DNA of 9,060 nucleotides, from positions 1-9,060 of IMG/VR virus record IMGVR_UViG_2663763232_000002; one strand, 5' to 3'. Each line of letters opens with the position of its first letter. The first letter of the stretch is position 1. The notes beneath the pieces were generated by a model. The model searched no databases, was not told the origin of the DNA, and saw only the letters and a program-made list of their open reading frames with translations. This document shows positions 1-9,060 of the stretch, one piece after another. A program made the position numbers and the translations under genes. This DNA comes from a virus. Its lineage: Duplodnaviria; Heunggongvirae; Uroviricota; Caudoviricetes.

Positions 1-168
1 TCAGTTGTTACGGGAAGGAATCAGGGTGGCCAGATGTACAGTGGCACGTCTCATGGCGGCTCTTACCCTGCTGGTGCTGTTGCCAGCCCTCATTTCGATG
101 CTGCTCACAGTAGCCTGAACGGTCCGTAGTCGTACCGGGACAACCTCTCTTGCGACATGCGCGAGGGA

Positions 169-402
169 TTAACGCTGGCATGGTTCAATCCTCACGGAAC
201 CGTAGAGCGTATGCCGCTTCACTTCATCGTTCTCTGCCGTCATATAACCACGCTCATCAGGAACGGCTGCGATTACTTCGCCCTTCTCATCGTCAGCAGT
301 GAAGACATGCTTAACTTCAACACCATTGAGATAAACGCTATACCGCTCTTTGCTGAGGTTTATTTTTCTTCCAGGATCATCATCTAAAACGGTTAGTCTC
401 AT
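169..402 (-). CDS. Small hypothetical phage protein (77 aa), function unknown
   Basis: ATG at 402-400 preceded by an AGGGGA Shine-Dalgarno ('AGGGGATAAGA ATG' on the minus strand). Same orientation as the Rha gene upstream. No family recognised from the sequence. Confidence 0.5.
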   Translation of the reverse strand: MRLTVLDDDPGRKINLSKERYSVYLNGVEVKHVFTADDEKGEVIAAVPDERGYMTAENDEVKRHTLYGSVRIEPCQR

Positions 403-490
403 TCTTATCCCCTACTTGGTATATTGATTATCTTATTCGCTTGAAGGGATAACCATTATCAAGCCCACCCGTAGATGGGCTTTGGAATGG

Positions 491-1045
491 TCACTTTGGC
501 AGTCCTGGGATCGATATTTGCGCCTGCTGCTCAAGCCTTTCGATTCTTGCTATGAGTTGCGGTTTTTTGATCCTGCCCCAGCGGTTCAGCAAGCGTCCTG
601 ACATACTGGCAACATCCTTTTCCTTCATGAACTCCAGCATTAACTCGTTGTGCTCTCTTTGGTATGAGTGAGCCATCTCCATCAGCCTGTCACGCATCCA
701 ATTAAATGCTTTGATAAACGCCTCTTTGATGGCGGCAGCTTTTTTGCCGGTAAACGACATGATGATGTACATCGCGCCGTCTTTGGAAATTTCATATTCA
801 ACATACTGATTACCCTTGTGTTCATAGGTAACCCGCGAAAAGTTGCTGGTTAGAAATTCATCCGAACAGTCTAGCTTTTCGATTTTCTGAATGATGTGGT
901 GATGCTGCTTGTCGAAGTAAGCTGCTACCTTGCGGGAGGTTGTGATCACGCGATTACCAGAAACAACCACCATGTCCCGGAAATCGAGATTAGCCAATTG
1001 ATGATTCATAGCGTCTTTACCTTTTAGAAAGTGAGCCTGTCTCAC
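491..1045 (-). CDS. Rha-family phage regulatory protein (antirepressor-like)
   Basis: The N-terminal segment 'VVVSGNRVITTSRKVAAYFDKQHHHIIQKIEKL...YIIMSFTGKKAAAIKEAFIKAF' matches the Phage_pRha signature as I remember it. The ORF-track start at 1045 is a GTG; an in-frame ATG at 1009-1007 with an upstream AAAGG is an alternative start. Confidence 0.7.
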   Translation of the reverse strand: MRQAHFLKGKDAMNHQLANLDFRDMVVVSGNRVITTSRKVAAYFDKQHHHIIQKIEKLDCSDEFLTSNFSRVTYEHKGNQYVEYEISKDGAMYIIMSFTGKKAAAIKEAFIKAFNWMRDRLMEMAHSYQREHNELMLEFMKEKDVASMSGRLLNRWGRIKKPQLIARIERLEQQAQISIPGLPK

Positions 1046-1157
1046 AGAAAAGCCGCCCCGAGATGGTCGCCACCATATACGGCATTTCTCAGGCTCGCTT
1101 ACTGAAAGGCTCGGGTGATGTAATATGCGCGTGAGATGCGCTGTGAAATTCAGATGT

Positions 1158-1181
1158 AAAAAAAGCCCCGCATCGCGAGGC
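1158..1181 (-). terminator. Candidate rho-independent terminator downstream of Rz/Rz1
   Basis: Minus strand reads 5'-GCCTCGC-GAT-GCGGGGC-TTTTTTT-3': a 7-bp GC-rich stem (one G.U pair), 3-nt loop, then a 7-T tract, lying 33 nt past the Rz stop. Confidence 0.45.
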
Positions 1182-1213
1182 TCATTAAATGGACTTTGTG
1201 ATTTGCAAAAGAA

Positions 1214-1681
1214 TTATTTCAGGCATTGCGTCCTGATGTATTCCTGCAGGTAGTTAACCTGCGCGGTTATCTTGTCGATTCCACTTCGGAGACGGTAATA
1301 ATTGAGTTCAGCATCTGCTGTAAGTCTTGGGCTTTCTCCATCGCCCATGCTGCTGGCTCCGGTCGTTGACTTTGCACAGGTGGCGGCGACTTGCAGCCGC
1401 TTACGGCCAGCAATGACATCGCTATGCAGACGCTCAATGGTTTCTTTCGCATCAGCCAGTTCTCCGGTGTATTTGGCATCCAGTGCAGCGACATCACGCT
1501 GGCGGGTCTGCATGTCTTTAATGGTGGCGGTCGCCAGGAGGAGTTTCTCAGTGGCCTTATCGCGCTGGTCTCTGTAAGTGATGGCGTTGTCGCGGTAGTG
1601 GTTCACGAAGAAAGCCAGTGCGCCGATTAACGCCAGCACCAGCAACTGCAGCCAGTAACGCTTAACCAGTGCGCTAATCAT
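1214..1681 (-). CDS. Rz: Spanin, inner-membrane subunit (i-spanin) Rz
   Basis: The 155-aa product has an N-terminal hydrophobic anchor followed by '[11 protein letters not shown]...[19 protein letters not shown]', closely matching lambda Rz. Its ATG overlaps the endolysin stop (ATGA at 1678-1681). Confidence 0.9.
1267..1452 (-). CDS. Rz1: Spanin, outer-membrane lipoprotein subunit (o-spanin) Rz1, embedded in Rz in the +1 frame
   Basis: Internal ATG at 1452 gives a 61-aa product '[33 protein letters not shown]...' with a signal peptide, a lipobox (LAVSG|C) and a proline-rich mature region, as in lambda Rz1. It lies wholly inside Rz. The ORF-track entry 1267..1497 is the same frame with a spurious upstream extension. 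Confidence 0.8.
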
Positions 1682-2127
1682 GACAGGAACAGAGCTCGCT
1701 CTGCCTCCCGCCGACGTGTCAGCCCATTCAGCACCTTCCCACCAGCTTTATTCCAGCGCAGGAACTCATCGGCTGCACCAGCGTAATCTCCGGCGTTGAG
1801 TTTTCGCAGGAGAGTCGATGTCGACAATGACCGCGCACCGAGGTTATACGTGAACGACACCAGGGCATCGAACTGGCCTTGTGTCAGCTTCACCCTGACA
1901 ACTTTCAGCACGTCATTCTCATAACCAACAAGCCCTGTTTTCAGAAGCCTGTCAGCGGTTTGCTGGTCGATAGTCATACCGCGCTTTACTGGCTTTCCGT
2001 CAACCGGATGGGTCCAGCCATAGCCGATGGTCCACGGCGCATCTCCCGTTCCGGGGTCGGGGTAAGCAGTCAGCCGACAACCTTCAAATTTTTTTATCAG
2101 AGCAATTCCGTCAGGACTGGTTTGCAT
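1678..2127 (-). CDS. Endolysin, T4/P22-type lysozyme (GH24 muramidase)
   Basis: Catalytic-region pattern '[22 protein letters not shown]' (Glu, then Asp 8 residues later, then Thr 5 further) and the C-terminal 'FTYNLGA....[19 protein letters not shown]....GL..RR..E' resemble phage 21/P22 lysozymes. There is no N-terminal SAR/TM segment, so it depends on the holin. The ORF-track start at 2154 is TTG; I call the ATG at 2127-2125 with an upstream GGGAG. Confidence 0.85.
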
Positions 2128-2434
2128 CGTCAACTCCCGCCTTTTTTGCTGCAAGTTTTTTAATCAAATTGCCGATCGAATCGGTGCCGATGTATCCAAT
2201 AAAGACGCTGGCTATGTAGGCGAGGTTGCTGCTCAGGCCGATAAAGTCCAGAAGGTCACGAACGAACCAGGCAATCATCGCGCACATCAGCGCATCAATT
2301 AGCGTTTTTGTTACCGCGCCGCCGTTATAGCGACCACGCAGATACGCCATGATAAAAGCCAGCATTGCACCAATACCCTGCTCCTTGGCGGCAAGTAGCG
2401 CAGCAATGAAATCTTGTTTGTATGGCATTTTCAT
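2111..2434 (-). CDS. S: Class I holin, lambda S family, with dual-start motif (holin/antiholin)
   Basis: The 107-aa product '[39 protein letters not shown]...' is near-identical in pattern to lambda S, including the Met1-Lys2-Met3 dual start. A GGAGG Shine-Dalgarno lies 8 nt upstream. The ORF-track extension to 2512 starts at a TTG and is not supported. Confidence 0.9.
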
Positions 2435-2458
2435 AGGCCTCACCTCCGATTTTTCGGA
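2435..2458 (-). promoter_or_regulatory. S translation-initiation region: stem-loop overlapping the Shine-Dalgarno (sdi-like)
   Basis: Minus strand reads 5'-TCCGA-AAAA-TCGGA-GGTGAGGCCT-ATG: a 5-bp stem whose 3' arm overlaps the GGAGG Shine-Dalgarno, directly before the Met-Lys-Met dual start. This is analogous to the lambda S sdi structure that sets the S107:S105 ratio. Confidence 0.4.
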
Positions 2459-2540
2459 TGGCGCTGTGTGTGTATGAAAAGGATCAGGCTTCACTGGCTG
2501 GATTTTCAACAAAGCACGTAGTGATTGATTCCCGTGAGCC

Positions 2541-2567
2541 TGAAATAAAAAACCAGCTCAAGGCTGG
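2541..2567 (-). terminator. Candidate intrinsic terminator between the tRNA pair and S
   Basis: Minus strand reads 5'-CCAGC-CTTGA-GCTGG-TTTTTTATTT-3': a 5-bp stem (4 G:C), 5-nt loop and 6-T tract. The stem is short, so strength is uncertain. Confidence 0.4.
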
Positions 2568-2623
2568 AATGTTAGGGTGTGGCAATGTCAGCTCTGCGGC
2601 TGAAGATACCCTGGCTGGGTTTT

Positions 2624-2699
2624 TGGTGCCGGTTAACGGATTTGAACCGCTACCTATTCACTTACAAGGCGACCGCTCTACCATTGGAGCTAAACCAGC
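2624..2699 (-). tRNA. tRNA-Thr (anticodon UGU), phage-encoded
   Basis: Hand-folded 76-nt cloverleaf on the minus strand: acceptor GCTGGTT/AACCGGC (one G.U), U8, D-arm GCTC-CAATGGTA-GAGC with G18G19, anticodon loop CU-UGU-AA, T-arm AGCGG-TTCAAAT-CCGTT, discriminator A, encoded CCA. Deviations: C where A14 is expected and a G:A at 27:43. Confidence 0.55.
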
Positions 2700-2704
2700 A
2701 TGTT

Positions 2705-2779
2705 TGGCGGGACAGCGTGGACTCGAACCACGATAAGAAGGTTAACAGCCTTCCGTAATGACCTTTATACGACTGACCC
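2705..2779 (-). tRNA. tRNA-Asn (anticodon GUU), phage-encoded
   Basis: Hand-folded 75-nt cloverleaf on the minus strand: anticodon arm GAAGG-CUGUUAA-CCTTC (same loop as E. coli tRNA-Asn), T-arm CGTGG-TTCGAGT-CCACG, 4-nt variable loop, discriminator G, encoded CCA. The acceptor stem GGGTCAG/CTGTCCC has a U4:U69 mismatch and the D-stem has a 13:22 mismatch. It sits 5 nt upstream of the tRNA-Thr. Confidence 0.6.
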
Positions 2780-2783
2780 AAAT

Positions 2784-2825
2784 AAAAAAAGCCACCGTTG
2801 CAACTTAAGAGTCACTAACGGCAGC
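2784..2825 (-). terminator. Candidate tR'-like leader terminator between Q and the tRNAs
   Basis: Minus strand reads 5'-GCTGCCGTT-(17-nt loop AGTGACTCTTAAGTTGC)-AACGGTGGC-TTTTTTTATTT: a 9-bp stem (7 Watson-Crick plus 2 G.U) followed by a 7-T tract. The T tract ends 4 nt before the tRNA-Asn 5' end. Confidence 0.45.
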
Positions 2826-2829
2826 TTAT

Positions 2830-2866
2830 GCGAATAGTGTTGCTCATTTGCTCAATGATGTCAACA
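2830..2866 (-). promoter_or_regulatory. Candidate late promoter pR' / Q-utilisation region
   Basis: A perfect -35 hexamer TTGACA on the minus strand at 2864-2859, seven nt after the Q stop. No convincing -10 at 16-19 bp spacing (AACACT, ACACTA and CACTAT are the options). The position, directly downstream of Q and upstream of a leader terminator, matches lambdoid pR'. Confidence 0.3.
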
Positions 2867-2870
2867 CGTT

Positions 2871-3359
2871 CTATGCTACATGTTTAATTTTCTCTACACG
2901 TTTCCGGTTTTTAAACGCACTATCCAGAACTGGGTAAATCATAAACAACGAAGCATTGAGGATTTCGTCAACTTCCCGGCGACAGGTTGCGAGCGATGGT
3001 TTTTGAATACGCCCGCCGCCCCGGCATAACATCTTGCGAGGTCTTGCGACACGATGATAGTAAGATGCAATGGCATGCTTGGAAGATCCATGAGCGTAGT
3101 AGCTGAGGAGGATGCCAAAGGCTTTCTTGTCAATGCACATGACGGAATCGACGACCTGAGAAATCAACATTCCATCATCATCATTACACATTGGCCTTGT
3201 CATAACTCTTCCCGGCTCTACGCTCTCCATGAACTTCGCTATTACGCTGCTCATGCGCTTTTCCAGACGACCTGAATAAACCCATGCGCCCCACAGTTCA
3301 AGCCAGCCATTCAGCCAATCGTGCTGTTCTTTGGTGAGGTTTAGTTCTCTTATGCTCAT
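2871..3359 (-). CDS. Q: Late-gene antiterminator Q (Q family of E. coli lambdoid prophages, not lambda-Q type by sequence)
   Basis: The 162-aa product 'WLELWGAWVYSGRLEKR...MTRPMCNDDDGML...SYYAHGSS...RRE' matches, from memory, the Q antiterminators of E. coli lambdoid prophages. Position is canonical, between ninH and the lysis cassette. The ATG overlaps the ninH stop (ATGA, 3356-3359). Confidence 0.75.
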   Translation of the reverse strand: MSIRELNLTKEQHDWLNGWLELWGAWVYSGRLEKRMSSVIAKFMESVEPGRVMTRPMCNDDDGMLISQVVDSVMCIDKKAFGILLSYYAHGSSKHAIASYYHRVARPRKMLCRGGGRIQKPSLATCRREVDEILNASLFMIYPVLDSAFKNRKRVEKIKHVA

Positions 3360-3544
3360 CGTCTTCCCCTCTTGCCCTGTTTGACCATCAGGACGCCGTT
3401 AACTATTACGTGACGCTCGCCTTTGCTGTCTCGGTTGTACTTGAGCACTGTTCCTCTTGCGCAGGAAAGCATCCTTGCCACTTCGGTCTGATTGCCTCGT
3501 GTCTGGATAAGAAGCTCTGGTATCGTTTGAATTGTGGCGTTCAT
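3356..3544 (-). CDS. ninH: NinH (small HTH DNA-binding protein)
   Basis: '..TIPELLIQTRGNQTEVARMLSCARGTVLKY..D.KGE.HVIVNGVLMV' aligns with lambda NinH ('KTIPDMLVEAYGNQTEVARRLKCSRGTVRKY...HAIVNDVLMV'). ATGA overlap with rusA at 3541-3544. Confidence 0.85.
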   Translation of the reverse strand: MNATIQTIPELLIQTRGNQTEVARMLSCARGTVLKYNRDSKGERHVIVNGVLMVKQGKRGRR

Positions 3545-3903
3545 ACGTTCTCCAGTTCGGTGATTTTTATTCCAAGCCGTCCGCCTGGTACTTTCACGCC
3601 ACGAATTACGCGAATGTCATCGAATTGCTCGTCGTCTTCCGCAAATCCTGCGTGGATAAGGGAATCGAGTAAACCCTTCAGGATGTTATCGAGGTCGCGG
3701 CGGCGGGAGTCTGGAACGTCTGCGATGACTTTGATGCGGAGTCTTGATTTGGTGAAAATGTCTAACTTGAGTTGGCGGATGATTTGCTGAACGTCTTTTC
3801 GGTATTTCTGGCCTTTATCGCTGATGTAGTATTGGCTTCCCCGTCTTCGCCAGTAGGTGTTCACCGACGGCTGGTAAGGAAGCACAAACTGATATTCGTT
3901 CAT
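3541..3903 (-). CDS. rusA: Holliday-junction resolvase RusA
   Basis: The 120-aa product 'YQFVLPYQPSVNTYWRRRG...IADVPDSRRRDLDNILKGLLDSLIHAGF..DD.Q..D.RV......GGRL.I.ITE' shows the RusA family motifs (catalytic Asp cluster RRRDLDN). ATGA overlap with the upstream gene. Confidence 0.9.
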   Translation of the reverse strand: MNEYQFVLPYQPSVNTYWRRRGSQYYISDKGQKYRKDVQQIIRQLKLDIFTKSRLRIKVIADVPDSRRRDLDNILKGLLDSLIHAGFAEDDEQFDDIRVIRGVKVPGGRLGIKITELENV

Positions 3904-4190
3904 GGCTTAATCTTCCCCTCCTTCAGCAGGATCGCCTGCGTCCTGATCACGCCTTCGAGGTGATAAAGTCTGGCGTCTTTGTTGTCGAGGTTATGGGTGC
4001 GTCGGTCGATCTCCGCGTGGCAGTCACTACAAGCCCATGTGCCGATCAGGTCGGCAGGCTTCATTCCCGTTCCGCAAATTCCAGCCATCCGGTAATGCGC
4101 CAGAACTGTAGTTTCAGGATTACCATTGCATATGCCGTAAATACGTACCTGGCATTCTCTGCCGCGCGCTTCTTTGCGTAGGTTAGCCAT
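3900..4190 (-). CDS. ybcO: YbcO-like DUF1364 protein (putative Zn-binding nuclease)
   Basis: 'MANLRKEARGRECQVRIYGICNGNPETTVLAHYRMAGICGTG.KP.DL....ACSDCHAEIDRRTH' closely matches DLP12 YbcO as I recall it, and sits directly upstream of rusA as in DLP12. Confidence 0.8.
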   Translation of the reverse strand: MANLRKEARGRECQVRIYGICNGNPETTVLAHYRMAGICGTGMKPADLIGTWACSDCHAEIDRRTHNLDNKDARLYHLEGVIRTQAILLKEGKIKP

Positions 4191-4459
4191 TATGGTTCAC
4201 TCCAGTAATTCTCAATTGCAGCAGCCATTCTCTGCATCCACTCAGCCAGCTTTAACGCGGCTTCTCTTTCAGAACCACATTTAGGGAAATCCTTCATTTC
4301 CATGCTGGCCTTATATGTTCTGAATGCCAGGTCTCCGGTAATAACCAGCTCCTGATCAAGCACCGAGCGTTTATTCCGGTGTTGAACGTAATAGACAGAT
4401 TCAGTCCGCATTTCTTCTCTGTCTTTTTTGAAGGAAATAAGCTCAGAGAAATCATTCAT
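4190..4459 (-). CDS. Hypothetical nin-region protein (89 aa)
   Basis: Clean ATG at 4459-4457; an 8-nt start/stop overlap with ninF upstream and a 1-nt overlap with the ybcO-like gene downstream show it is embedded in the translationally coupled operon. No recognisable family. It occupies the slot that ninG/rap holds in lambda. Confidence 0.6.
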   Translation of the reverse strand: MNDFSELISFKKDREEMRTESVYYVQHRNKRSVLDQELVITGDLAFRTYKASMEMKDFPKCGSEREAALKLAEWMQRMAAAIENYWSEP

Positions 4460-4622
4460 CGTCTTCTTCCTCGTACATTGAGCTATTCGGATCGCTCATC
4501 AGTTCTGCGCAGCAATCGGAGCACACGTGAACTTCCAGCACATACAGCTTCTGACCGCAGTTAGCGCACGTTAAAGCCCGCTCGACGCTTTCTTGTTCGT
4601 AACTTCGATTTGGGTCAATCAC
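4452..4622 (-). CDS. ninF: NinF (56 aa), absent from the ORF track because it is under 60 aa
   Basis: Manual translation of the minus strand gives '(V/M)[55 protein letters not shown]', matching lambda NinF ('...[45 protein letters not shown].'). GTG start at 4622-4620 with a GAGGAAAA Shine-Dalgarno 8 nt upstream; GTGA overlap with the ninE stop. Confidence 0.7.
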
Positions 4623-4801
4623 CTTGTTTTCCTCGCACGTTCTCTAAGCCACCGGATATCCCACAGGTGAGCCGTGTAGTTGAAGGTTTTTACGTCAGAT
4701 TCTTTTGGGATTGGCTTGCGTTTATTTCTGGAGCGTTTCGTTGGAAGGTATTTGCAGTTTTCGCAGATGATGTCGGTGATACTTCGTCGCTGTCGTCTCA
4801 T
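4619..4801 (-). CDS. ninE: NinE (60 aa)
   Basis: Internal ATG at 4801-4799 with an AGGAGG Shine-Dalgarno 5 nt upstream gives '[60 protein letters not shown]', matching lambda-type NinE from memory. The ATG overlaps the methyltransferase stop (ATGA, 4798-4801). The ORF-track 90-aa version is a spurious 5' extension. Confidence 0.75.
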
Positions 4802-5343
4802 GCCGCCCTCCTGACGCCCTGCCCGATCGCCATCAATGCCACTTTGGATACGGTAGTAAACATCCGTCGAGGACTGATGAACGGTCGCCAAATCAGCAGC
4901 ATGGAGCCTTTGCTGTTTCCCTTTTTCTCCAGCCCTGTCGATGGTTCGATAAAATTAATCCGTCCATCAGTGATAATACGAACTTCGTCAACACTCTCCA
5001 GAGCCTTGCTGAACCATCCGACTGACATATCCTCTGGCACAAGCATCACTACCGTCTGTCGCTGTTGTATGCACTGCTCAGCGGCTTTTTCCACCCACGG
5101 CCTGATATTGCTGTACGGTGGGTTATTCCAGATTGCACCGTGGCTTATCCACTCAGAATTGAGCGCGTTGTCAGCCTCAGTTAGCCAGTGAGCGCACAGA
5201 GCATTTTTGTCGCTCGCTGCCGAATCCAGCCAGAATCCAAACTCAATATCCAGTGCATCAAAAAGCCAGAGCGGCGTTTGCCAGCAGTCCTTGTCGTGTG
5301 CTGGCGTATTTGATTTGATAGTCATGCAGCCCGATCTCCCCAT
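4798..5343 (-). CDS. Phage DNA N6-adenine methyltransferase (Dam-like, orphan)
   Basis: '[28 protein letters not shown].......L...W....[17 protein letters not shown].......Q.VVMLVP' carries the NPPY catalytic motif IV and matches the phage Dam (PF05869-type) pattern. No cognate restriction gene is adjacent. An alternative ATG at 5325 overlaps the HNH stop as ATGA and may be the true start. Confidence 0.85.
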
Positions 5344-5924
5344 CTCGCTTTCATTTTTTCATTTGCAAATCGCCAGAATCTTCCTTTGTGATATGAGCTT
5401 TCGCCATTACAGCAACGACTAATTGACGAACTATCAAATCCTTCTCTGACAGCATCCATAGCTGCTTCATAATAAACCTCCTCCCCAGTTTTCATGTCAG
5501 TAGAAATAACAGCTTTACTGGCAGGATGGTCACCACTAAATTTACCTAGCGATATAGGTATTCTTCCATTTTGTTTATATCCGTGTTTTGAGTTTTCAGA
5601 ATGTGATACCCATTCAAGGTTATCAGCCCTATTGTCATCTCTTCGCCCATTTTTGTGATTAACTACCAAGCCATCACAGAACCCTGTACAGAATGCTTTC
5701 GCAACTATCCTGTGGGCGCTGTATTTCTTACCGTATACCTTTATTTGAAGATATCCTGTCGACTTGCACTTGAATGGTTTTACACTAGTGCCATTAATTA
5801 TTTTCTTATATGGCCTCTGTCTGGTTGATGTTACTGTAACTTCCCTCGTAATAGACCTAAAATTTCCTTTATTGCTAACCTGATAAAATGGAATCCCTTC
5901 GATATCTACCCAAACCTCAATCAT
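5322..5924 (-). CDS. Free-standing HNH homing endonuclease (NUMOD4 + HNH_3-type)
   Basis: N-terminal NUMOD4-like 'EVWVDIEGIPFYQVSNKGNFRSI'; HNH core 'H-KNG-RRD-DN-RAD-NL-EWVSHSE-N-SK-H'; C-terminal 'F.S...AA...G.....IS.CC.G...S..G..WRF', typical of phage HNH endonuclease DNA-binding tails. GGAGG Shine-Dalgarno before the ATG at 5924. The gene body is markedly AT-rich. Confidence 0.85.
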   Translation of the reverse strand: MIEVWVDIEGIPFYQVSNKGNFRSITREVTVTSTRQRPYKKIINGTSVKPFKCKSTGYLQIKVYGKKYSAHRIVAKAFCTGFCDGLVVNHKNGRRDDNRADNLEWVSHSENSKHGYKQNGRIPISLGKFSGDHPASKAVISTDMKTGEEVYYEAAMDAVREGFDSSSISRCCNGESSYHKGRFWRFANEKMKARWGDRAA

Positions 5925-6333
5925 AATTCCTCCATTCGCTAAGATGAATTGAGTTCATGGCACAATATGCTTCTATGTAGTCCATTATTTCGGATATTTT
6001 TTTTACAGATAGAGTCGCCGTACTCTCTCTGATGTTTATTAGCTCACCTTCTAACCCTGATATAATCTCAGGGTGCTGGTTGGTTGCAATCTGCCAACCA
6101 GAAACGAATAACCCCTTCCAAAACTCAATATTTCTTGCTTTTCCATGATATGTAGCCTTCTTACTTATTTCAGATAGCATCGCGTGAAGGCGTGCATTTT
6201 GCCGAATGCTGCGGTTGCGTTCCTGAATGGTTACTACGATTGGTTTGGTTGGGTCTGGAAGGATTTGCTGTACTGCGTGAATAGCGTTTTGCTGATGTGC
6301 TGGAGATCGAATTTCAAAGGTTAGTTTTTTCAT
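5917..6333 (-). CDS. ninB: NinB (Orf-family recombination mediator), mosaic allele
   Basis: The first ~41 residues, 'MKKLTFEIRSPAHQQNAIHAVQQILPDPTKPIVVTIQERNRS', match lambda NinB as I recall it; the remainder is homologous but divergent. GAGGGAAG Shine-Dalgarno before the ATG at 6333. Confidence 0.85.
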   Translation of the reverse strand: MKKLTFEIRSPAHQQNAIHAVQQILPDPTKPIVVTIQERNRSIRQNARLHAMLSEISKKATYHGKARNIEFWKGLFVSGWQIATNQHPEIISGLEGELINIRESTATLSVKKISEIMDYIEAYCAMNSIHLSEWRNYD

Positions 6334-6526
6334 GACTTCCCTCTCTAACAGATTTCAGGTTATTCCACTCCGTTACCGCACTGCGATAATTCGCGGCCGC
6401 CACAGCAGCGTGGTTAGCGCAGTAGATTTCGCACCCGCTCTCCATGTCAAATATTGTCGGTGATTTTCCGCATTTACATTTTTTGGCACGCGGTGCGTCT
6501 GAACACATTCCGTTAACGGTGTCCAT
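6314..6526 (-). CDS. Small Cys-rich hypothetical protein (70 aa, zinc-ribbon-like)
   Basis: Strong Shine-Dalgarno (GAGGGGGA) before the ATG at 6526. Cysteines are arranged C-x8-CxC...C-x3-C. It is the first gene after the terminator, in the position of ren in lambda. No family recognised. Confidence 0.5.
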   Translation of the reverse strand: MDTVNGMCSDAPRAKKCKCGKSPTIFDMESGCEIYCANHAAVAAANYRSAVTEWNNLKSVREGSHEKTNL

Positions 6527-6550
6527 CAGGATCCCCCTCGTTCTTAATCC

Positions 6551-6581
6551 AATAAAAAAGGGCTACTGTGTAAATAGCCCC
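6551..6581 (-). terminator. Intrinsic terminator downstream of the primase-helicase (tR2-like position)
   Basis: Minus strand reads 5'-GGGCTA-TTTACACAG-TAGCCC-TTTTTTATT-3': a 6-bp stem (7 if the flanking G:C is counted), 9-nt loop and 6-T tract, between the replication gene stop (6612) and the first nin-region gene. Confidence 0.6.
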
Positions 6582-6611
6582 TGTTATTAGCTCAGTGATG
6601 TAGATGGTCAT

Positions 6612-8492
6612 TTAATACTCCGTCACGTTTTCCTGTCGCCACGCCTCGTCATATTCCGATTTCGGCATATTGGCGATGTAGCTATAAGGCGATCCTGATT
6701 CAAGTTGCAGGAACTGGTGCGATTGCTCGTCAAGGAACAAAGGGACGCCACCTTCCCAACCTTCGCCGTTACGTTGCTTTTCAAGCATCAAAACAGATGC
6801 CGGAGATGCCAGTAGCTGTTCGTCCTTCTCTGACATCTTTTCACCACTCTGAACTCTCTGTAACGCTCTCTCGCGAGCCTTGTTACGCCAGATGATGAAA
6901 AGGTTGTCTGTCAGGTCTGTTATCGCTCCAGAGCCTTTTACGTCCATTTTCCCGGTTGGTTTTTCTTCGCTGTCACCTTTTCGCGAGTGAGTAACGAGAA
7001 TGACGTGGGAGTTTGTTTTGTTTTTGAAATCGCAAATCGAGTCAACAAACGCCTTCTGCCCGTTATAGTCATCGTCGCCTATGCCACATTTCATTAGGCT
7101 GTCGATGATGAATAACTGGATCCCGTATCGGCGGCGAGCGTAGTCGAATATTTCGATCAGCCTGTCGGCTTTCGCCGTTCCGGTCAGACCAAACACCCAA
7201 AGTCTTTCGTCATAAAATTTAAATGCAGAGTCAATTTCCAGCACTGGCGGCATCTTGCAGCACGTCGCCTGACGGGTAAGGCGCTTAAGGAGAATACCAG
7301 GCTTCAGCTCAAGTGACGCGATGCACGTCTTCACACCCTGACGCATTGCCTCAAGTGCCATATGCCCGACAACCTCCGTTTTTCCGTGACCGTTCACACC
7401 ATTGACCAGCGTCAACTCGGCCTCACGGAACTGGAATTTATCTGCCAGAGATTCCCACGGTGGATTAAACAGATACTGCTGCTTGCCGTAGAAAGCGTTG
7501 ATAGTGTCCTGGTAAAACTCTCGCGCGCTGTAGAGTTCTTCAGGATCGAAGTAGGATGCCGTGCCGATGTACTGCCAGATTTCATCCTCGGTAACACCGT
7601 TCATCAGGCATTCGTTGATGTCTTTGTACGGCAGAGTAACAAGACGGCAACGATGTTCACCGAGTCGGCTTGCGATTTCCCTTGCGGCTTCACGACCAAC
7701 ATCATCAACGTCCATCGAGATGAATATTTCCTCAAACCTGTCGAGGTTGTGATACTCAAACTCAATCCACTGTTGCTTAGCGCCTTTCCCGCCACCAAAC
7801 GGCACGGATAACGCCGAGATGCCGTATTGCGCATAGCTCATACAATCAATTTCGCCTTCGCAAAGTACAACCGCCCTCACGCCAGCGTCCAGAGCCTGCC
7901 ATCCGAACAGACAAGGTTCGCAATCACCTTCTGCCATAATGACTTTCTTCCCGTCCGGGCGCTCAGTGCTGATTCGCTTGACCTGCAACAACTCACCATC
8001 GCGTTTGTACGGAATCACCAGAGCATCCAGTTCTCGCTCTCCATTCCACACCTTGCCGCTGACAACCTCGTAGCGCTTTACGACTTCTGGCGATATGCCA
8101 CGCGATTGCAGGTACTCAAGATGGGATTCTGTTCTGGTAACGTAGCGGGCGATTTTCTTGCGATCAGGTCTGGAGAATTTCTTCTCACGTTTGGCATCGA
8201 AATGGTGATCGTCATCCTTGATACCGAGAAATGCTTTCGCTTCCTGCATAGCCTGATGCAGGTTAATTCCTCGACATGCCATCCACAAATCAAGCATGTC
8301 ACCGCCGTCCCCCTCAGCGAAATCAGCCCATTTTTTCTTGCCGCTAAGGTTGACCTTAAGGCTGTTTCCCTTGTCACCGTTGACGTTACCGGCAACCCAC
8401 TCATGCCCCTCTTTCTTGCCGTTTGGCAACAGGTGCGGAGCCACCCTGTCAACCTGCGCCCAAAGCAGGTCGCTAAGTTCACTTGGCGTCAT
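6612..8492 (-). CDS. Bifunctional DNA primase-helicase, T7 gp4-like (degenerate zinc-binding-like domain, TOPRIM primase, DnaB-family helicase)
   Basis: TOPRIM motifs 'VVLCEGEIDCMS' and 'ISMDVDDVGREAA', and 'LPYKDINECLMNG' (T7 gp4 has 'LPCKDANECHLNG'). Helicase Walker A 'NGVNGHGKT', Walker B 'LFIIDSL', and 'VKGSGAITDLTDNLFIIWRN' (T7 has '[20 protein letters not shown]'). GAGGGA Shine-Dalgarno before the ATG at 8492. Confidence 0.9.
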   Translation of the reverse strand: MTPSELSDLLWAQVDRVAPHLLPNGKKEGHEWVAGNVNGDKGNSLKVNLSGKKKWADFAEGDGGDMLDLWMACRGINLHQAMQEAKAFLGIKDDDHHFDAKREKKFSRPDRKKIARYVTRTESHLEYLQSRGISPEVVKRYEVVSGKVWNGERELDALVIPYKRDGELLQVKRISTERPDGKKVIMAEGDCEPCLFGWQALDAGVRAVVLCEGEIDCMSYAQYGISALSVPFGGGKGAKQQWIEFEYHNLDRFEEIFISMDVDDVGREAAREIASRLGEHRCRLVTLPYKDINECLMNGVTEDEIWQYIGTASYFDPEELYSAREFYQDTINAFYGKQQYLFNPPWESLADKFQFREAELTLVNGVNGHGKTEVVGHMALEAMRQGVKTCIASLELKPGILLKRLTRQATCCKMPPVLEIDSAFKFYDERLWVFGLTGTAKADRLIEIFDYARRRYGIQLFIIDSLMKCGIGDDDYNGQKAFVDSICDFKNKTNSHVILVTHSRKGDSEEKPTGKMDVKGSGAITDLTDNLFIIWRNKARERALQRVQSGEKMSEKDEQLLASPASVLMLEKQRNGEGWEGGVPLFLDEQSHQFLQLESGSPYSYIANMPKSEYDEAWRQENVTEY

Positions 8493-8542
8493 GATTCCCT
8501 CAGATTGAGATTTTTAAACCAGAAATCGACAAACGAAATACT

Positions 8543-8558
8543 TAACCAGCCGTGGTTA
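8543..8558. promoter_or_regulatory. Inverted repeat TAACCA-GCCG-TGGTTA in the intergenic region upstream of the primase-helicase
   Basis: Six-bp arms that are exact reverse complements, separated by 4 bp, about 50 nt upstream of the primase-helicase start. Flanked by three AACCAG direct repeats (8517, 8544, 8560). Candidate operator or hairpin; no functional evidence. Confidence 0.25.
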
Positions 8559-8599
8559 TAACCAGCGACCAGTAGCGATTTGATTTTTGATTTCATGGT

Positions 8600-8974
8600 T
8601 CACCTGTCGAAAAACACGTAGCCAGTTTTCGATACGGTGATTGCGGATGATGGTTTGGATTGTGGTTGAATAGTTTCTGGCTTCTCGTCGTTCCAGCGTT
8701 GACCGTTCAGGTAGCTCGATGGTAACAACCTGTCGAATCCGAACTGCTTACCATTCCTGCATGCGATGTCTTCTGCCAGCATCGTGGCAAACTCGCTTGC
8801 CGTACCCCTGGTAGTTTTACGCCATTCCCTGAACTGTGTTCTGAATGCCGAAGCTGCGTTTTTCTTCCCGGCTTTCCGCATGCCTGCACACCAGAATATT
8901 TCCTCGAATGCCTTGTCGGTTTCTTCGTGACGGTCAGGAGTTTTTTCACACTCTGTTCGGACATGTTCGAACAT
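8600..8974 (-). CDS. Hypothetical replication-module protein (initiator-like?), probably 5'-truncated by the window edge
   Basis: The 124-aa ORF from ATG 8974 has no Shine-Dalgarno, and the same frame stays open upstream to the window end at 9060, so the real start is likely outside the window. Located immediately upstream of the primase-helicase. No family recognised. Confidence 0.5.
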   Translation of the reverse strand: MFEHVRTECEKTPDRHEETDKAFEEIFWCAGMRKAGKKNAASAFRTQFREWRKTTRGTASEFATMLAEDIACRNGKQFGFDRLLPSSYLNGQRWNDEKPETIQPQSKPSSAITVSKTGYVFFDR

Positions 8975-9021
8975 AATGTTTTTAGGTTCATTGACTGGTT
9001 CAAAAGAGTGATAGGTTCTGG

Positions 9022-9060
9022 GGGCAGCTCCTGCCCCACCCCCTAGGGCAGCTCCTGCCC
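9022..9060. repeat. Tandem palindromic iteron-like repeats (candidate replication origin or operator array), truncated by the window end
   Basis: The 15-bp unit GGGCAGCTCCTGCCC (arms GGGCAG/CTGCCC, 3-bp centre) occurs at 9022-9036 and 9046-9060 with a 24-bp period. The window ends inside the array. Confidence 0.5.

Follow-up and report, generated by a model that had tools for sequence, protein, structure and literature searches.

The nin region of phage lambda is dispensable (nin5 deletion). Downstream of ninF, it encodes NinG/Rap, a basic junction endonuclease of about 200 aa (PF05766). In a P22-like lysogen, transcripts of ninE, ninF, and ninH went undetected (PMC12922286), which is consistent with the nin genes being lytic-cycle genes. 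We analyzed a 9,060-nucleotide stretch of DNA from a Caudoviricetes virus (IMG/VR record IMGVR_UViG_2663763232_000002, positions 1 to 9,060), which we refer to as the window. Like ninG of lambda, a small gene of the window, ORF89, is located downstream of ninF in a nin operon. However, its product is not homologous to NinG/Rap and is less than half the size.

Position and coding status of ORF89

The window carries, on its minus strand, the early-right arm of a lambdoid E. coli prophage of mosaic makeup, and ORF89 lies in the delayed-early (PR/nin) operon. The gene order on the minus strand is primase-helicase (6612-8492), a 70-aa Cys-rich ORF, ninB (5917-6333), an HNH/NUMOD4 endonuclease gene (5322-5924), dam (4798-5343), ninE, ninF (4452-4622), ORF89, ybcO (3900-4190), rusA (3541-3903), ninH (3356-3544), and Q (2871-3359). 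Two tRNAs and the lysis cassette follow Q. The features at and around ORF89 are as follows.

4190-4459, minus strand: ORF89 coding sequence, 89 aa, ATG to TAA (ORF list and raw sequence; member of PHROG 1258)
4452-4622, minus strand: ninF, the upstream neighbor (Pfam PF05810, E = 1.1e-12)
3900-4190, minus strand: ybcO (DUF1364), putative nuclease, the downstream neighbor (Pfam PF07102, E = 8.6e-43)
3541-3903, minus strand: rusA, Holliday-junction resolvase (Pfam PF05866, E = 1.6e-16)
4452-4459, minus strand: overlap of the ninF stop and the ORF89 start, 8 nt, ATGAATGA (raw sequence)
4188-4192, minus strand: overlap of the ORF89 stop and the ybcO start, TAATG, 1 nt shared (raw sequence)
4468-4472, minus strand: ORF89 Shine-Dalgarno site GAGGA, in the 3'-terminal part of ninF and 8 nt ahead of the ORF89 ATG (read from the sequence)
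4200-4203, minus strand: ybcO Shine-Dalgarno site GGAG, within the last ORF89 codons, 9 nt before the ybcO ATG (read from the sequence)

The ninF gene ends with a TGA at 4454-4452, and the ATG of ORF89 (4459-4457) lies within its last 8 nt; the minus strand across this junction reads ATGAATGA. The same overlap is found in phages mEp235 and SPN9CC and in a prophage of E. coli E2348/69. At the other end, the TAA of ORF89 (4192-4190) and the ATG of ybcO (4190-4188) have base 4190 in common. A start/stop overlap is present at each junction from ninB to Q (ninB/HNH/dam/ninE/ninF/ORF89/ybcO/rusA/ninH/Q). Therefore, the overlaps reflect the style of the operon and are nothing peculiar to ORF89. In a consensus scan, the coding strand showed no terminator-like site, and nothing promoter-like was detected at or adjoining ORF89, as would be expected if the gene is expressed by read-through as part of the nin operon. 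ORF89 thus lies between the replication genes and Q, is co-oriented with them, and has no promoter or terminator of its own, as is characteristic of a nin-operon gene of lambdoid phages. The initial annotation had placed the gene in a nin operon, coupled by start/stop overlaps to ninF and to a ybcO-like gene, and the raw sequence and the Pfam matches bear this out. The mEp235 annotation includes an internal promoter that corresponds to window positions 4215-4189 (minus strand), a sigma-70-like TTGAGA-N15-CATAAT in the last ORF89 codons. This is probably a chance match, as it overlaps the ybcO ATG and was missed by the consensus scan.

Several other features of the window were recorded along the way. 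The window is mosaic: none of the phage records reaches 80% coverage of it. In place of lambda O/P, its replication module (6612-8492, minus strand) has one 626-aa primase-helicase, annotated in phage mEp043 as a "toprim domain-containing protein" and as ES18 gp61-like. The primase-helicase is preceded by a 124-aa ORF (8600-8974, minus strand). The 70-aa Cys-rich ORF (6314-6526, minus strand) is upstream of ninB and overlaps its start; it contains a zinc-ribbon-like CKCG...C..YC..H pattern and has no PADLOC match. The NUMOD4 plus HNH_3 gene (200 aa, 5322-5924, minus strand) resembles a homing endonuclease and sits between ninB and dam, overlapping both. In mEp043, which is otherwise 97% identical, ninB abuts dam without an HNH gene. 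This suggests that the HNH gene is a free-standing homing endonuclease insertion. The NinE ORF as listed (4619-4891, minus strand, TTG start, 90 aa) is too long, with Pfam NinE covering residues 31-88 only. An ATG at 4801-4799 that overlaps the dam stop (ATGA) and is preceded by a GGAGGG Shine-Dalgarno site gives the usual 60-aa NinE. The two tRNA genes, tRNA-Thr(TGT) and tRNA-Asn(GTT) (2624-2779, minus strand), lie between Q and the holin, and the same pair occurs in the E2348/69 prophage and in SPN9CC.

The ORF listing also shows several antisense ORFs of 73-126 aa in the window, so the 89-codon length by itself is not beyond chance. However, the family HMM of PHROG 1258 matches ORF89 with an E value of 5.5e-38 (130 bits; residues 2-89 on profile positions 9-97 of 97). 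A profile built from close relatives recovered 67 relatives, which are cluster representatives among 1.84e9 representative proteins, and a second family profile recovered 110 proteins from a set of 5.8 billion. The reading frame is intact in 84 of 84 near-identical copies. These copies represent 39 distinct alleles, whose variable sites split 7/5/17 by codon position. Among relatives at 58-72% identity, pS is 0.77-0.98 (saturated) and pN is 0.14-0.30; dN/dS is 0.07-0.28 for the pairs that allow an estimate. ORF89 is therefore a genuine gene maintained by purifying selection. Four independent lines lead to this conclusion: the relatives found by PHROG 1258 and the profiles, the intact alleles with their codon-position pattern of variable sites, the comparison of pN with pS, and a confident AlphaFold2 fold, which is described below. 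Two annotated versions of 139-141 aa (P0001 and P0002) are mis-called starts, because the two N-terminal extensions have nothing in common and no other relative has either of them.

Genomic contexts and an exchangeable slot upstream of ybcO

Copies of ORF89 with 97-99% identity are found in phages mEp235 (gp51, AFM76269), ECP1, phiv205-1, vB_EcoP-611R6, and SPN9CC (SPN9CC_0035) and in Salmonella P22-like phages. Among E. coli prophages, the gene is present in that of E2348/69 and in many others; the E. coli protein is WP_001279421.1. In mEp235, SPN9CC, and E2348/69, the arrangement is ninF-ORF-ybcO-rusA with the same overlaps as in the window. The window allele has N2, whereas most other copies in the close group of PHROG 1258 have S2.

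Homologues at 48-72% identity are located directly upstream of ninG and overlap its start in Cronobacter, Rahnella, Enterobacter, Yokenella, and Yersinia prophages. The preceding gene in these loci is ninF or another small nin-region gene. One homologue, in Symbiopectobacterium, lies directly before rusA and overlaps the rusA start. Because the homologues co-occur with ninG and precede it, ORF89 is an extra gene and not a positional substitute for ninG. The role of lambda ninG is filled in the window by ybcO-rusA. The statement in the initial annotation that the gene "sits where lambda has ninG/rap" is thus inaccurate, and still other relatives are found elsewhere.

These more distant relatives (30-45% identity) include N15 gp44, phiKO2 gp43, HK225_059 of HK225 (before ninB), Mulock_055 of Mulock, and one in F1055. 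In the P1-like phage-plasmids RCS47 (p0097) and SJ46, they are in the variable region. Relatives are also found upstream of ninF in Morganella, one small ORF downstream of dnaB in Proteus, in an accessory cluster near an integrase in Serratia, just after Rz in Xenorhabdus, before a GemA homologue in Photorhabdus, and after a D12 methyltransferase in Citrobacter. We compared the flanking genes of 5 phages and 24 genomes by all-against-all BLAST, with Pfam searches of the unlabeled neighbors, and found no conserved partner gene. The only recurrent neighbors, and these only loosely, are orphan accessory genes of the Ead/Ea22-like and DUF551 types.

All identifiable hosts are Enterobacterales, except for a "Bacillota" MAG, a "Collinsella" MAG, and a Limoniibacter contig. 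The two MAG copies are 99% identical, and the one examined is in a full E. coli-type nin context. Both almost certainly stem from E. coli prophage DNA that contaminated these MAGs during binning. The Limoniibacter contig is taken as an N15-like element. The ORF89 family is thus one of temperate phages and prophages of Enterobacterales.

Phage mEp043 aligns with roughly half of the window, at 97% identity, but does not have ORF89. In ninF and ybcO, its identity to the window is about 100%; on the ninF side this reaches into the first 11 nt of ORF89, and on the other side it resumes at the ybcO ATG.

4192-4449, minus strand: exchangeable cassette, the ORF89 slot (identity to mEp043 about 100% on either side and lost in between)

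In the ORF89 position, mEp043 carries gp60, a 70-aa ORF that overlaps ninF and ybcO just as ORF89 does and even begins with the same three codons (M-S/N-D). Beyond codon 3, neither gp60 nor the other slot occupants have any similarity to ORF89; they are alternative cargo and not homologues. We surveyed 80 IMG/VR contigs, chosen for having the closest YbcO proteins, and typed the gene immediately upstream of ybcO, with the following outcome.

Rha/ANT-like protein, about 240 aa: 53 of 80 contigs
70-aa ORF of the mEp043 gp60 type: 11 of 80 contigs
ORF89: 11 of 80 contigs
101-aa ORF: 4 of 80 contigs
130-aa membrane-like ORF resembling RCS47 p0098: 1 of 80 contigs

The recombination junctions of the slot coincide with the start and stop overlaps. 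This defined recombination slot thus takes any of at least five unrelated cargo genes, which are interchangeable and include ORF89, and such slot swapping is classic behavior of non-essential mosaic accessory genes. In P1-like RCS47, the gene p0098 (4262-4636 of locus L084) encodes a membrane-like protein ("...WAAAAGYDFNY...") and is the next gene downstream of the homologue of ORF89, and a relative of p0098 is the alternative occupant found in one lambdoid ybcO-upstream slot. ORF89 and the p0098-type genes seem to travel in one pool of accessory cassettes.

Predicted fold and conserved surface

AlphaFold2 gave a model with a pLDDT of 95.5 and a pTM of 0.80 from 54 sequences. A model from 13 sequences had a pLDDT of 81 and an identical topology. 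ORF89 is predicted to form an antiparallel beta-meander of four strands (residues 2-13, 18-28, 33-43, and 48-54). A conserved "DFP" loop leads to a single 24-residue C-terminal helix (residues 64-87) that packs against one face of the sheet. The two parts map to the window as follows.

4298-4456, minus strand: ORF89 codons 2-54, predicted four-stranded antiparallel beta-meander, the variable part of the family (model and alignment)
4199-4288, minus strand: ORF89 codons 58-87, the FP of the "DFP" loop and the predicted C-terminal helix (model and alignment)

The family tolerates an indel of 9-10 residues in the beta2-beta3 hairpin. The segment SEREAALKLAEWMQRM-AAIE-YW, in contrast to the sheet, is nearly invariant down to 58% overall identity. 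In 54 diverse relatives (28-53% identity to ORF89), Q36, F58, K70, L71, W74, and R77 are at least 90% conserved. The family motif DFP-x5-EAALKLA[DE]W[LM]xR[LM] is present in ORF89, including F58, K70, L71, W74, and R77. The near-invariant helix next to a variable, indel-tolerant sheet suggests that the helix and the DFP loop are a putative functional surface, because this degree of conservation exceeds the needs of folding and is typical of an interaction surface. However, K70 and R77 may be structural residues, forming salt bridges to the sheet or the DFP loop, rather than parts of a binding surface.

ORF89 is a small soluble protein in which no catalytic motif is seen; counted from the sequence, it has a net charge of about -2, one Cys, and one His. 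No signal peptide, transmembrane segment, Cys/His cluster, or nucleotide-binding motif was seen in it. Pfam gave no match at an E value of 0.1 or below, including NinG (PF05766) and YbcO (PF07102), and none of the 5027 defense-protein HMMs of PADLOC-DB matched at that threshold. Pfam domains are absent from all 110 relatives as well. The one NCBIfam match, NF008256 (PRK11027.2-3 hypothetical protein), reached 15.1 bits (E = 0.015) against a curated cutoff of 236 bits and is a chance match, seen in 1 of 54 family members. PDB sequence and profile searches returned nothing with one query set; with another, the lone PDB match was a Euglena complex-I subunit (E = 0.49), also by chance. The only match in a BFVD structure search was a member of the ORF89 family itself.

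"Hypothetical protein" is the database name for ORF89, its close relatives, N15 gp44, RCS47 p0097, HK225_059, and Mulock_055. Literature searches by accession, locus tag, PHROG identifier, peptide string, and topic found nothing on ORF89. The initial annotation had called the protein uncharacterized and without a recognizable motif, and had named homology to a characterized housekeeping phage protein as grounds for rejecting its view. The first two points agree with our searches, and no such homology turned up. Two relatives appear as fusions. One (P0043) joins a homologue to an N-terminus of Rv2179c-like exoribonuclease type, but this is a truncated F1055_28-type exonuclease fragment, and the fusion is a deletion or assembly chimera. 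In the other (P0044), a homologue is seemingly read through into an unrelated downstream gene. Neither was taken as evidence on function. The domain search of the relatives also gave two Ead/Ea22 matches that are not assignable to particular members.

Candidate functions and comparison with known systems

We tentatively suggest that ORF89 is a non-enzymatic accessory protein of the lytic cycle that binds a host or rival-element factor through its near-invariant C-terminal helix, as a counter-defense or host-modulation protein would. The gene is real and constrained, has no enzyme or DNA-binding signature, and behaves like a cassette without a fixed partner. An accessory or host-takeover role fits its mosaic, slot-swapping distribution. 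ORF89 is translationally coupled to ninF and in turn passes ribosomes on to ybcO; in this scenario, it would be expressed early in the lytic cycle with the rest of the nin operon. The protein would act stoichiometrically, using the C-terminal helix and the DFP loop to bind another macromolecule. It may thus be a modulator or inhibitor of a host or rival-element factor and not a core replication, recombination, or morphogenesis protein. Such a target is the most likely one, because no partner is encoded alongside and the family is confined to phages of Enterobacterales. In the Pfam, NCBIfam, PADLOC-DB, PDB, and BFVD searches, no similarity of ORF89 to characterized anti-defense or host-takeover proteins turned up, a point against this explanation, and some Xenorhabdus and Photorhabdus copies located after the lysis cassette argue against early timing throughout the family.

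The neighborhood also lends itself to a second explanation, in which ORF89 is an accessory factor in recombination or junction processing that binds or regulates the downstream nuclease (NinG/Rap, YbcO, or RusA) or branched DNA. ORF89 is inside the ninB ... ybcO-rusA recombination cluster, and its overlap with a nuclease start is seen with ybcO (window, mEp235, SPN9CC, and E2348/69), with ninG (the five genera named above), and with rusA (Symbiopectobacterium). Coupling of the family to a junction nuclease occurs in at least 7 of about 35 independent contexts, and this suits a recombination role and a host-directed binder equally. However, most distant relatives have no nuclease neighbor (N15 gp44, RCS47 p0097, HK225_059, Mulock_055, and the Proteus, Serratia, and Xenorhabdus loci), and 69 of the 80 YbcO modules do without ORF89. 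One partner would also have to serve three unrelated nucleases, and the slightly negative charge and the absence of a DNA-binding motif are further points against such a factor. We therefore regard a recombination role as unlikely. Nor does ORF89 itself look like a nuclease of the YbcO/DUF1364 or HNH type, as it has a single Cys and a single His and no PF07102 match.

A small regulator that uses the exposed face of the predicted sheet or the K70/R77 face of the helix to bind nucleic acid (DNA or RNA) of the phage or the host is quite improbable; the points in its favor are weak fold echoes and nothing else. Still less probable is a prophage moron that protects the lysogen by superinfection exclusion or defense instead of aiding lytic growth. 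The distribution is patchy and cassette-like, the slot also carries Rha/ANT-like and membrane-protein cargo, and some copies follow the lysis cassette or belong to the variable region of P1-like phage-plasmids, as might be expected of a moron. However, ORF89 is embedded in the overlapping nin chain without a detected promoter-like site, has no PADLOC match, and belongs to a gene set that is silent in a related lysogen (PMC12922286). Last, a chance or decaying ORF without function is effectively refuted: antisense ORFs of similar length exist in the window, but the strong purifying selection, the profile-detectable family across Enterobacterales, the very confident predicted fold, and the intact frame in every close copy all stand against it. 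The rest of the probability falls to something else.

Returning to the host-directed binder that we favor, a bolder version is conceivable but doubtful. PHROG 1258 might be an unrecognized class of phage inhibitors, with a fold lacking a solved relative, whose members would be stand-alone early proteins that neutralize a conserved defense or DNA-repair factor of Enterobacterales via the C-terminal helix. An inhibitor class of this kind would explain why the cassette is traded among lambdoid, N15-like, and P1-like temperate elements. Should ORF89 prove to inhibit a host system, the repertoire of such inhibitors would gain a new family of small proteins and a new fold. Its constraint, confident predicted fold, conserved helix, and defined slot make ORF89 a clean and cheap candidate for screens of counter-defense or host takeover, for which mEp235 on E. 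coli K-12 offers a tractable phage.

The family had already been catalogued (PHROG 1258, mEp235 gp51, and WP_001279421.1), and nothing categorically new is demonstrated here. We class ORF89 with the small, dispensable accessory ORFs of the nin/early region of temperate enterobacterial phages; it is one of thousands of conserved phage ORFans. What we add is the strong purifying selection, the high-confidence predicted fold, the conservation in the C-terminal helix, and the defined slot with at least five cargo genes.

Compared with proteins of solved structure, the predicted fold has no significant relative. Foldseek against the PDB, queried with the AlphaFold2 model from 13 sequences, returned nothing significant (best E value 0.25; 1-13% identity). 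TipC2, CdiI, polo-box, and cystatin/NTF2-like scaffolds, all of them sheet-plus-helix binding or immunity domains, scored in the range of generic topology. The cystatin helix is N-terminal, whereas that of ORF89 is C-terminal. Judged from the model, there appears to be no evidence of common descent or shared function between ORF89 and these small binding or immunity domains. A toxin-immunity or CDI immunity role like that of TipC2 or CdiI would call for a clear fold match together with an adjacent cognate toxin gene, a combination that ORF89 does not present.

A further comparison is with the relatives of N15 type. N15 gp44, phiKO2 gp43, HK225_059, Mulock_055, and RCS47 p0097 are 35-44% identical to ORF89 over the whole length and share with it the C-terminal motif DFP...EAALKLA[DE]W[LM].R[LM]. 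Compared with ORF89, they are extended by 8-20 residues at the N terminus, and their beta2-beta3 hairpin is longer. They also differ in neighborhood, being found in linear plasmid prophages, in phage-plasmids, and before ninB.
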